Under the pieces are notes generated by a model. The model was not told where the DNA came from. It worked only from the letters and a program-made list of their open reading frames with translations, and made no database searches. A program made the translations under genes and the position numbers. From a virus, in the IMG/VR virus record IMGVR_UViG_3300042558_003617, positions 8,457 through 72,456 of that record: a DNA stretch of 64,000 nt. One strand, written 5' to 3'. Positions 32,149 to 42,953 of this stretch are shown here, in pieces. The number at the start of each line of letters is the position of its first letter. The stretch's first letter is position 1.

Positions 32149-32321
32149 CGTGTTTTCCTTTGTTGTGATTTAGGGCTAGTGAACGTTTTGTCCACACACG
32201 GTAGGCGTTCTGTATTAATAATACAGTAAAGACATCGATATGTCAAGCGTCTTGGAGATCCGACGTCGGTCTGATACCGGCGTTGCTGACTATATTTATT
32301 CTGTCAATTAATTTAATCAAG

Positions 32322-32345
32322 AAAAAGCCCACCGAAGTGGGCTTC
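32322..32345 (-). terminator. Intrinsic terminator of tmRNA locus
   Basis: AAGCCCAC-TTCG-GTGGGCTTTTT. Confidence 0.9.
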
Positions 32346-32666
32346 TAGAGTTTCTGTTACGAGGTATGTCTTACCCTAAGCTGAGTTTAGGCAGCTAATG
32401 CGAACTGTGAGTCGTTTGCGTTTACTTTGTTTTGCTTCTTCGACCGAGTTACCCCAATCCTACGGCTTCTACATTGCCGGACTGTCCATTTCAATACTCT
32501 TGACCCAATCGATCCTGTGTCAGGCCCATCATAAAAAGATTGCTACTATTACTATGAAAATTAATATTGCTAACAATGATGGTAATCTCACGTAATCTCC
32601 TTATGGTGGACCTGGCGGGCACTGCCCCCGCGTCTTGAATCCTTTTCTGTCTACTTCATACAGTCT
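32346..32666 (-). ncRNA. ssrA: Circularly permuted two-piece tmRNA: acceptor piece ~32666-32604 (ends CCA), intervening segment 32603-32528, coding piece from 32527; tag ANDSQFALAA at 32419-32387
   Basis: GGGCCTG pairs with CAGGTCC-ACCA with G3:U70; T-arm GCGGG-GGCAGTG-CCCGC; resume ORF GCA AAC GAC TCA CAG TTC GCA TTA GCT GCC TAA; CCA end lies upstream of 5' end. Confidence 0.93.
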
Positions 32667-32676
32667 TAACTTTTAT

Positions 32677-32853
32677 TTATTCTTCAACTCCGAAATGTGC
32701 CAGTATAATGTCTGCATCGTAGTCTGCCAAGCAAAGTTCAGCACATTTCTTCACAATCAACTCGGCGAACTTTTCAGCATGGTCCACGCCCATCCATTTG
32801 CCACTAGTATCAGTGCCTGCTTGATTCATTAGTTGTTTAATTCGTTCGTTCAT
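32677..32853 (-). CDS. Small hypothetical phage protein (58 aa, not in ORF track)
   Basis: MNERIKQL...EKFAELIVKKC...HFGVEE; SD GGAG. Confidence 0.65.
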   Translation of the reverse strand: MNERIKQLMNQAGTDTSGKWMGVDHAEKFAELIVKKCAELCLADYDADIILAHFGVEE

Positions 32854-32884
32854 CTATCAACTCCGGAATAGGTTAACAGAATCA

Positions 32885-33148
32885 TTATCGACCGGGAAGG
32901 CCAGGTGTGGCACTGTGTCGTTCTTTGCGTGTTCTTCGATCTTCCACATGCGTGGATTTTAGCAAAAGCTCACGCCCAATTTTGCCTTGTTCAATTTCTT
33001 CCAGAGCCTTGACAAGATTGCCCGAATTGCTGACAACAGTTGGTTGATACCCCACAGAAAGTTCTCTAGCACGCCTGGATGCAATCAGCACCAGGTCGTA
33101 CCGGTTGCCCACTGCACTTACTGCTGATTCACTGGTGTATCTGGCCAT
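32885..33148 (-). CDS. rpoZ: RNA polymerase omega subunit homologue
   Basis: MARYT..AV..VGNRYDLVLIASRRAREL...ALEEIEQGKI; SD AAGGA. Confidence 0.88.
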   Translation of the reverse strand: MARYTSESAVSAVGNRYDLVLIASRRARELSVGYQPTVVSNSGNLVKALEEIEQGKIGRELLLKSTHVEDRRTRKERHSATPGLPGR

Positions 33149-42644: not shown

Positions 42645-42863
42645 TTGCTCTGCATCCCCCGGCGGTAATTGTAGTACATCAGAAATTTGGTCAGCAAGTT
42701 TTCACTCACCAATTAGTTTTTCATCACACGTACCTTCCACCCGCTTCCCGACAGGGACCGTTATCGCATTGCTAGCGGCCTTTGGGTTCGAAGACTACCA
42801 CCCGTACTTGTCACAGTACTTCTCATCGTGTGGGTCACACTATCCGGAGACACCCGGAACGTT
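42645..42863 (-). ncRNA. Unassigned structured RNA between tRNA-Tyr and tRNA-Cys
   Basis: GC-rich, non-coding, multiple hairpins (TCCGGG/TCCGGA, GTGTG/CACAC, GTAC/GTAC, AATTGGT/ACCAAATT). Confidence 0.55.
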
Positions 42864-42864
42864 C

Positions 42865-42953
42865 TGGTGGAGATGATAGGATTCGAACCTATTGCGTTTC
42901 TTAAGTACCGGATTTACAGTCCGGGGCCACTCCACCATCGTAGCCGCATCTCC
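42865..42953 (-). tRNA. tRNA-Tyr(GTA)
   Basis: CCGGA-CTGTAAA-TCCGG, long variable arm. Confidence 0.9.

Follow-up and report, generated by a model that had tools for sequence, protein, structure and literature searches.

Transfer-messenger RNA (tmRNA) has been studied for decades, and in 2000 Keiler, Shapiro and Williams reportedly described permuted genes for a two-piece tmRNA that contain an intervening sequence (IVS). The IVS of such genes has been treated as disposable. The mRNAs of type I toxins (hok, tisB, ibs, ldr) encode a hydrophobic single-helix peptide of 18-50 amino acids (aa), have the Shine-Dalgarno (SD) sequence buried by the mRNA fold, and are activated by processing or refolding. 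In the arfA mRNA, a hairpin at the 3′ end of the small open reading frame (ORF) is cut by an RNA-processing enzyme, and the ribosome reaches the 3′ end near the last codon. Dual-function RNAs (SgrS/SgrT, RNAIII/hld, SR1/SR1P) provide a functional RNA and a small peptide or protein from one transcript, and both mitochondrial tRNA punctuation and small ORFs in phage tRNA clusters are known arrangements. Here we describe a 64-kb stretch of viral DNA (hereafter, the window), where the IVS of a permuted tmRNA gene is occupied by an SD-led ORF of 20 codons, and we provide evidence that such ORFs recur in related phage tmRNA genes. With a probability of about 0.6, the ORF in the window is a translated, functional gene for a small membrane peptide nested in the pre-tmRNA.

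The window is part of a 72,456-bp IMG/VR virus record (IMGVR_UViG_3300042558_003617; CheckV completeness 21%) and represents a lytic-type jumbo-phage fragment. The permuted tmRNA gene lies on the minus strand at 32665..32387 and was detected by covariance model only. The Rfam model RF04321 (tmRNA_permuted) scored 106.1 bits vs. a gathering score of 47 and was matched over its whole length (positions 1-213 of 213), RF01849 also matched (62 bits vs. 50), and ARAGORN made no call for this tmRNA. The parts of the gene and of its IVS are the following:

32604..32665, minus strand: tmRNA acceptor piece (RF04321 model positions 1-62) with the T-arm GCGGG/GGCAGUG/CCCGC, the 3′ acceptor strand CAGGUCC and the encoded ACCA
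32528..32603, minus strand: IVS of 76 nt, left unaligned by the model between CCA and GGGCCUG; its removal from the pre-tmRNA is expected
32597..32603, minus strand: SD-like TAAGGAG immediately 3′ of CCA, doubling as 5′ strand of the closing helix (from the sequence and the fold)
32529..32591, minus strand: ORF with a GTG start (32591..32589) and a TGA stop (32531..32529), peptide (M)RLPSLLAILIFIVIVAIFL (from the ORF list and translation)
32594..32605, minus strand: 5′ strand of the closing helix, CAUAAGGAGAUU, in the minimum free energy (MFE) and centroid structures
32530..32541, minus strand: 3′ strand of the closing helix in the predicted fold, AAUCUUUUUAUG, comprising the three final sense codons plus two bases (the first and second) of the stop
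32528..32531, minus strand: UGAU before the mature G1, including the stop codon, with three of its four bases paired with ACCA in the predicted fold (A73-U, C75-G, A76-U)
32387..32527, minus strand: tmRNA coding piece, from G1 (GGGCCUG, 32527) to the end of the tag frame (RF04321 alignment)
32387..32419, minus strand: tag coding sequence GCA AAC GAC UCA CAG UUC GCA UUA GCU GCC UAA, i.e., ANDSQFALAA and stop (from the alignment and sequence reading)

Just as in the permuted tmRNA genes already described (RF04321/RF01849/RF01850), the acceptor piece, the IVS and the coding piece follow one another in this order. The CCA is encoded (its last A is 32604 on the minus strand), the acceptor stem formed by GGGCCUG and CAGGUCC bears the G3:U70 pair specifying alanine identity and is followed by ACCA, and the tag is alanine-rich. 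The IVS, which in permuted genes is excised by tRNA-processing enzymes and is expected to be excised here as well, has a closing helix and the U(G/A)AU leader, like the non-coding relatives and the cultured phages XacN1 and PA_L9. The difference is that the IVS of the window carries an SD and an ORF.

The first-pass annotation of the window had claimed that an SD and a 20-aa ORF fill the tmRNA spacer, and every detail it described is present in the sequence. In the numbering of the IVS, AGGAG stands at position 3 and GTG at position 13, with 5 nt (ATTAC) between the SD and the start. From the GTG, the frame MRLPSLLAILIFIVIVAIFL comprises 20 sense codons, and the TGA is followed by a single U and then by the mature G1. 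The maximal 15-aa Kyte-Doolittle mean of the peptide is 3.69, the highest value among the 29 short SD-led ORFs considered below, and U occupies the second position in 15 of its 20 codons. The predicted fold of 32615..32522 stacks the acceptor stem, the ACCA:UGAU pairing and a 12-bp closing helix (MFE -25.7 kcal/mol, z = -4.42), and none of 200 shuffles was as stable. The earlier claim that the SD is sequestered in the closing stem is borne out by this model, where the SD falls inside the predicted 12-bp helix.

The ORF could nevertheless be a by-product of an IVS that serves as a processing hairpin only, where the AAGGAG comes from a helix strand, the UGA from the leader, and an AU-rich loop, enlarged by insertion or duplication, happens to be open by chance. 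We regard this as unlikely, albeit to be taken seriously. U-rich codons are automatically read as hydrophobic residues, and the interior of the IVS has a G+C content of 27%, which suits a by-product. To estimate chance, the first 12 and the last 13 nt of the IVS were fixed and the 51-nt interior was shuffled 100,000 times. An ORF open to the terminal TGA appeared in 6.2% of the shuffles, and one that also had a start at an SD-compatible spacing in 2.3%; spacing, open frame and a 15-aa Kyte-Doolittle mean of at least 2.6 coincided in only 0.016% (1.6e-4) of these composition-preserving shuffles, which speaks against a by-product. When both strands of the whole 64-kb window were searched for a 5-mer SD with a start 3-10 nt further on, 15-50 codons and a hydropathy of at least 2.4, a single ORF was obtained, and this was the ORF in the IVS. 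SD sequences are in use in the window, since 13 of the 44 minus-strand ORFs of at least 100 aa have a 5-mer SD vs. 1.7% of random 15-nt windows.

Related tmRNA genes were gathered by DNA pattern. One scan of viral contigs used the 18-mer CAGGTCCACCATAAGGAG, comprising the acceptor end and the SD, while two scans had no SD requirement and relied on the same acceptor stem with an IVS of 60-90 nt or on the unusual T-loop of the window, about 120 stretches being listed for each. The SD-independent scans yielded 144 distinct IVSs among the matches listed, and the fractions given for them describe these samples; all scans pooled yielded 178 distinct IVSs among the matches listed, flanked by a T-arm, an acceptor end and a coding piece. 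Loci L045-L047, refound by the acceptor-stem scan, were counted with the 18-mer set. Three of the 47 loci with the 18-mer (L054, L071, L089) were excluded as not being tmRNA, as were 21 of 246 T-arm-plus-acceptor matches that had no coding piece within 1.5 kb or lay at contig ends. All 12 ORF-bearing loci checked exceeded the gathering threshold of RF04321.

The results clearly showed that the arrangement seen in the window is recurrent. The 18-mer was found at 47 viral-contig loci, 44 of which are tmRNA acceptor pieces. At 33 of these 44, an ATG lies 11-13 nt past the CCA, and the ORF that it opens is 21-32 aa long and closes with a TGA placed exactly 1 nt ahead of GGGCCTG; the remaining 11 have IVSs of 118-494 nt holding larger ORFs. 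The distinct short SD-led ORFs number 29 including that of the window, the 28 others being 21-32 aa long, and their peptides start with polar or acidic residues and end in a hydrophobic tail (e.g., MNDNLGDLAIGVIVVLVIFALVLL, MDTGYTTLIGFIFVAIVFLVIL, MDPEVKYQYVCGILSVIILVFFIFFL). For the 32-aa peptide of L073, the best score in the ESM Atlas was 0.82, which is under the lead level of this tool. All 29 ORFs reach a 15-aa hydropathy of at least 2.6, whereas nine short exact-fill ORFs without an SD do not exceed 1.45; that none of these nine chance ORFs is hydrophobic speaks against a by-product. We defined the class by an SD core no further than 12 nt into the IVS, a start 3-13 nt later, a stop 1 nt before G1 and a hydrophobic C-terminal stretch of at least 2.6, and the window ORF shows this SD position, start spacing, stop position and hydrophobic stretch.

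The presence of an SD is associated with an ORF that fills the IVS. Among the 144 distinct IVSs, the ORF fills 15 and does not fill 12 of those with an SD (n = 27), and fills 12 and does not fill 105 of those without (n = 117), so that 15/27 stand against 12/117 (Fisher p = 1.1e-6). Nine of the 12 SD-less fillers are short (16-21 aa), mostly TTG-started, and have a hydropathy of at most 1.45. Their rate, 9 of 114 apparently non-coding IVSs, agrees with the 6.2% of shuffles and is what a by-product would look like; the other three (37-42 aa, ATG) are probably genes with a weak SD.

Moreover, the short ORFs evolve as coding sequences. In the short-peptide families, the variable sites are distributed over the three codon positions as 43/19/56 (chi-square p = 1.3e-4). 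The ratio of nonsynonymous to synonymous differences (pN/pS), calculated as sums over all pairs per family with shared ancestry uncorrected, is 0.23 (8 sequences), 0.16 (4) and 0.35 (3) in the ORF frame of the three largest short families, while in their wrong frames it is 0.36-12, with up to 8 stops. The smaller families gave 0.23, 0.62 and 0.72, and one pair showed a single difference. That 28 other distinct IVSs of the same architecture evolve as coding argues further against a by-product.

Other IVSs carry ORFs of 34-152 aa. In L220 (3292-3501, minus strand), the 69-aa ORF of the IVS is a full-profile match to Pfam DUF2061 (E = 3.5e-20) and ends 1 nt before G1; the tmRNA genes of L220 and L233, which have the same T-arm as the window, both hold this DUF2061 membrane-protein gene in the IVS. 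For the larger ORFs, pN/pS is 0.21 (L220/L233), 0.13 (L270/L243) and 0.32 (L273/L308), and the pair L261/L278 gave no signal, its ratio of 1.39 resting on only 7 differences. The larger IVS ORFs are clearly genes. Taken together, the results make us highly confident that a class of SD-led genes in the IVS of jumbo-phage permuted tmRNA genes is real: small hydrophobic SD-led ORFs recur at the same spot in related phage tmRNA genes and evolve in a coding-like manner. The IVS of phage permuted tmRNA genes is a hypervariable slot, occupied in some cases by a plain hairpin and in others by an accessory gene of 20-152 codons.

Another possibility is that the ORF acts in cis as a leader, i.e., that translation itself (or the availability of RF2) times the folding of the pre-tmRNA and its processing by RNase P, the peptide being irrelevant. 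In such a mechanism, the ribosome at the UGA would cover G1 and the 5′ acceptor strand and would melt the closing helix. The position of the stop fits this idea: among the 60 distinct SD-bearing IVSs among the matches listed, the SD-led ORF ends 1 nt before G1 in 38, whatever the peptide and whether it has 20 or 125 aa. In 7 it ends 2-20 nt before G1, in one (a two-ORF IVS) more than 20 nt before, and in 6 it reads through G1 into the coding piece (L211, L265, L273, L308, L277, L160); 8 are without an ORF starting next to the SD, and 6 of these 8 have an ORF of 101-152 aa starting 23 nt in. The closing helix is built from the SD and the last codons, and the peptides are unrelated in sequence across the class, which also fits a leader. 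Nevertheless, in the SD-independent scans 117 of the 144 distinct IVSs have no SD. Since most related tmRNA genes are without an SD, translation is not needed for tmRNA maturation. Furthermore, the amino-acid sequences are under purifying selection within families, one of them is a Pfam domain, and the strong transmembrane-like bias is unexpected for a leader that works independently of its sequence. We therefore consider a leader function quite unlikely.

The read-through ORFs deserve separate mention. L211 (6 contigs), L265, L238, L273, L308 and L277 have no stop in the IVS, and the ORF extends 11-23 codons into the coding piece; it shows conservative amino-acid changes with a pN/pS of 0.32-0.52. 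The read-through frame of L160 looks like chance. The large IVS ORFs (101-152 aa) of L043, L052, L066, L069, L222 and L258 have the common N-terminus MRI(K/N)(E/D)(L/I) and are otherwise different, with no match in Pfam or PHROGs; their common 5′ end might mark a cassette boundary.

Much of the geometry of the ORF is found in the IVS RNA irrespective of coding. The stop triplet within U(G/A)AU just before G1 is present in 171 of the 178 distinct related IVSs, coding or not, as well as in the cultured phages XacN1 and PA_L9; it might additionally halt stray ribosomes. The non-coding IVSs start with N-AAGCAUAYU and end with AGUAUGCUU-YUGAU, and 112 of 118 non-SD IVSs have an uninterrupted closing stem of 6 bp or more. 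Because the U(G/A)AU stop is conserved irrespective of coding and pairs with ACCA, the exact fit of the ORF is inherited from the RNA structure. The first-pass annotation had offered the perfect SD and the exact fit as arguments against chance; both are indeed there, but they are owed in part to the conserved closing helix and U(G/A)AU. Of the 40 SD-bearing IVSs of up to 150 nt, 38 have a predicted precursor fold in which the SD pairs with the final 16 nt of the IVS. The structure of the IVS interior does not separate coding from non-coding, the median shuffle z being -1.08 in the 29 coding IVSs and -0.54 in the 103 that have no SD. T-arm-like motifs GGTTCGA(A/T)TCC occur in the non-coding IVSs of L103, L115, L165, L215, L248 and L254 (two in L254), and may be tRNA fragments or mini-helices.

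Several observations weigh against a gene in the window itself. Since the stop position and the closing helix are kept in non-coding IVSs, they are not evidence for coding. Loci L312-L314, whose tmRNAs form a separate lineage and differ in the acceptor stem, have the identical first 15 nt of the IVS, TAAGGAGATTACGTG, in a 36-nt hairpin without an ORF, where the GTG is followed by TAG; the AAGGAG after CCA can therefore be pure structure. The ribosome would also meet the SD within a 12-bp helix, which is expected to inhibit initiation on the folded RNA. A GTG start is rare, being used by 2 of the 38 exact-fill SD-led ORFs, and the window ORF is the shortest member of the class. The window peptide was found at no other locus. 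A profile of the 28 other short peptides misses it: among 2,510 stop-to-stop segments of the window it was outside the top 12, where the best E was 0.07. The tmRNAs closest to that of the window carry unrelated IVSs, coding or non-coding, of 66 to 339 nt. When ranked by identity of the mature part (60 nt of the acceptor piece and 200 nt of the coding piece), the nearest relatives hold a 69-aa non-hydrophobic ORF (L261, 96%), non-coding hairpins (L275, 95%; L302 and L254, both 93%), a 104-aa ORF (L270, 93%) and a 37-aa ORF (L218, 92%). Because there is no orthologue among the relatives, purifying selection is not demonstrable for the window ORF. Being a singleton without an orthologue or a profile match, it belongs to the class by architecture, not by homology.

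Hence, the comparisons suggested in the first-pass annotation gave divided answers. As for conservation of the ORF and SD, the nearest relatives (90-96%) have unrelated IVSs, several of them without an SD or ORF, while many distant relatives have both; as for synonymous bias, the short-peptide families behave as coding, and the window copy has no orthologue to compare. The interpretation offered there is thus supported in part: SD-led genes exist as a class in the IVSs of jumbo-phage permuted tmRNA genes, and the ORF of the window fits this class by architecture.

Loci L312-L314 also bear on how such an ORF might have arisen. Besides the first 15 nt, their IVS agrees with that of the window in a 10-nt block and at the 3′ end, and the window IVS resembles the L312 hairpin with about 41 extra nucleotides and begins with the direct repeat GAGATTAC. 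This is compatible with the birth of the ORF by loop expansion as well as with the loss of an ORF in L312. The two copies of the repeat occupy nt 5-12 and 15-22 of the IVS, 2 nt apart, the second copy being codons 1-4 of the ORF; Tandem Repeats Finder reported nothing in 32500..32640. The repeat at the start of the IVS, the ORF-less IVS ends of L312-L314 and a singleton ORF in a hypervariable IVS are all in line with a by-product. The data also suggest a way in which a gene can be born inside an RNA hairpin, where a helix strand drifts to AAGGAG, the leader UGA gives the stop, and the pyrimidine-rich partner strand gives Leu/Phe codons. The Leu/Phe/Ser-Leu C-termini (-VLL, -IFL, -SL) are imposed by the pyrimidine-rich anti-SD strand, and with a UGA already in place, these anti-SD codons may have made it easier for hydrophobic peptides to arise. 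Both conserved halves of the tmRNA may serve as recombination arms for the IVS as a cassette slot.

A small hydrophobic peptide with an occluded SD, as found in the window (the occlusion being that of the predicted fold), brings to mind the type I toxins, and the first-pass annotation had drawn this parallel. The ORF would then encode a membrane-depolarising peptide silenced by the mRNA fold and an antisense RNA, as in hok/sok, tisB/istR and ibs/sib. Its size of 20 aa and composition recall Ibs- or Hok-type toxins by analogy, the way in which the SD is occluded by the 3′ part of the ORF formally resembles the fold-back of the hok mRNA, and activation would likewise be expected to need processing or refolding. 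The host transcript, however, is a tmRNA precursor, and the locus lies inside an RNA gene of a lytic-type jumbo-phage fragment rather than in a plasmid or chromosomal toxin-antitoxin context. No antisense partner was seen in a consensus promoter scan: all three promoter-like sites in 32200..32950 are on the minus strand and none on the plus strand, which as a consensus scan is weak evidence. In addition, sister IVSs encode unrelated, non-hydrophobic proteins. A type I toxin of this kind is very unlikely.

From these observations we infer that the window copy is probably translated, that translation may be timed co-transcriptionally, and that the peptide is probably inserted into the membrane and may have a function. 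Two further features bear on how this may proceed:

32702..32730, minus strand: promoter-like site TTGGCA-17 nt-TATACT, a consensus match only (10/12), within the 3′ end of the upstream 58-aa ORF
32323..32346, minus strand: intrinsic-terminator-like hairpin (10 pairs, 5 of them G-C) and T run closing the tmRNA transcription unit

Transcription of the pre-tmRNA would begin at a promoter of its own and end at its own terminator. The SD (UAAGGAG) would be exposed right after the CCA of the acceptor piece, before its pairing partner is made, and a ribosome could load only while the complementary 3′ strand, 50-60 nt downstream, is unmade or melted; in sister loci, the anti-SD strand would follow the SD by up to about 380 nt. 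The ribosome would make the 20-aa peptide, a single hydrophobic helix that is probably inserted into the membrane, and would halt at the UGA 1 nt before the RNase P site at G1. Upon its departure, the SD and the anti-SD strand (the last codons) would zip into the closing helix on top of ACCA:UGAU and the acceptor stem. The closed helix would block re-initiation and provide the substrate for RNase P and the 3′-end enzymes to free both tmRNA pieces. While a ribosome is paused on the UGA, G1 and the 5′ acceptor strand would be hidden beneath it; translation and maturation would therefore be mutually exclusive on each molecule. The peptide could regulate a membrane protein of the host, act in exclusion or in the timing of lysis, or be toxic.

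In its organization, the proposed gene is comparable to other known arrangements. As in tRNA punctuation, a short mRNA lies between two tRNA-type processing sites and its stop abuts a cleavage site; the difference is that the two marks in the window are halves of one RNA gene that must later pair. As with dual-function RNAs, one transcript would yield an RNA and a peptide, except that the coding part in the window lies in the discarded portion.

A related idea, which we consider rather unlikely, is that the cut IVS serves as a mini-mRNA on which the ribosome reaches the RNA 3′ end, so that the peptide is released or is tagged by the tmRNA from the same precursor, thereby reporting or tuning the capacity of trans-translation in the manner of arfA in E. 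coli; the tmRNA gene would then bring along a substrate of its own. The arfA mRNA is reportedly a non-stop message whose product is repressed by trans-translation (PMC10107115). By analogy, a ribosome on the IVS ORF would reach a cut 3′ end, and the fate of the product could hinge on tmRNA activity; in contrast to arfA, the cut in the window would be made by RNase P at the tmRNA 5′ end. After the cut, the window and 37 other distinct IVSs would end 1 nt past the stop, and only the L211 group, L238/L273/L308 and L277 have no stop in the IVS. The read-through ORFs of the L211, L273 and L277 groups would become non-stop messages upon cleavage by RNase P.

We also looked for the arrangement outside the pattern scans. 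A phage collection searched with the tmRNA region and with the neighbouring 525-aa protein gave no matches. In a synteny search, the 525-aa neighbour led to no confirmed locus, whereas the 352-aa TauD-like neighbour led to 33 viral loci. On these 33, nhmmer with the window tmRNA gave one weak match, and RF04321 found 7 permuted tmRNAs, 6 of them complete, which were used as outgroups only; all 6 lack an SD core in the opening 12 nt of the IVS. The acceptor piece of L045 matches cultured phages including XacN1 and PA_L9, and the two cultured phages inspected, XacN1 and PA_L9, have non-coding IVSs, so that no cultured-phage example of an ORF-type IVS was obtained. A bacterial scan (185,579 species genomes; one narrow degenerate pattern consisting of a T-arm frame and TCCACCATAAGGAG) returned 17 loci, of which 16 were rejected as ordinary tRNA 3′ ends or chance matches. 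The sole permuted tmRNA among them, L327, lies on a 2.5-kb contig of a Bacteroidia metagenome-assembled genome and has an SD and an ORF in a 152-nt IVS; this contig could be phage DNA binned with the bacterial genome.

In the window, the tmRNA gene is neighboured by the 58-aa ORF, an Rpb6/omega-like 87-aa protein, a radical-SAM protein, a TauD-family dioxygenase and a hexapeptide transferase. The gene for the 87-aa protein, an Rpb6/omega-like RNA polymerase subunit (Pfam PF01192, E = 3.5e-15), is located two genes upstream of the tmRNA at 32885-33148 on the minus strand. The window also contains 34 tRNA genes, all listed on the minus strand. A second RF04321 match inside the tRNA array (42651-42892, minus strand) covers model positions 36-95 and is weak, its 21.7 bits falling short of the cut-off; it probably represents the T-arm and acceptor of a tRNA.

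In the literature searched, including the available parts of PMC11915505, PMC9004378 and PMC4131195, with supplements, subscription papers and the original two-piece tmRNA papers outside its scope, we found no description of a protein-coding ORF in a tmRNA IVS. In the available part of its text, the tmRNA database paper of 2025 (PMC11915505), which covers 79 bacteriophage sequences only, singles out two unusual kinds of IVS content, a tRNA gene and a repetitive element, and neither "ORF" nor "open reading" occurs there.

If protein genes recurrently occupy the IVS in jumbo phages, then the pre-tmRNA is a dual-function transcript, both an mRNA and an RNA precursor. Gene callers and RNA annotators would miss such genes, which are ORFs under the usual length cut-offs and lie within an RNA feature. 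Host-takeover or anti-defence functions are often located at such cassette positions of phage genomes, and here the conserved halves of the tmRNA would be the arms by which a hypervariable cassette of accessory genes recombines. With a stop at the RNase P site and an SD occluded by the 3′ end of its own ORF, the arrangement would make a link between small proteins and ribosome rescue experimentally approachable.

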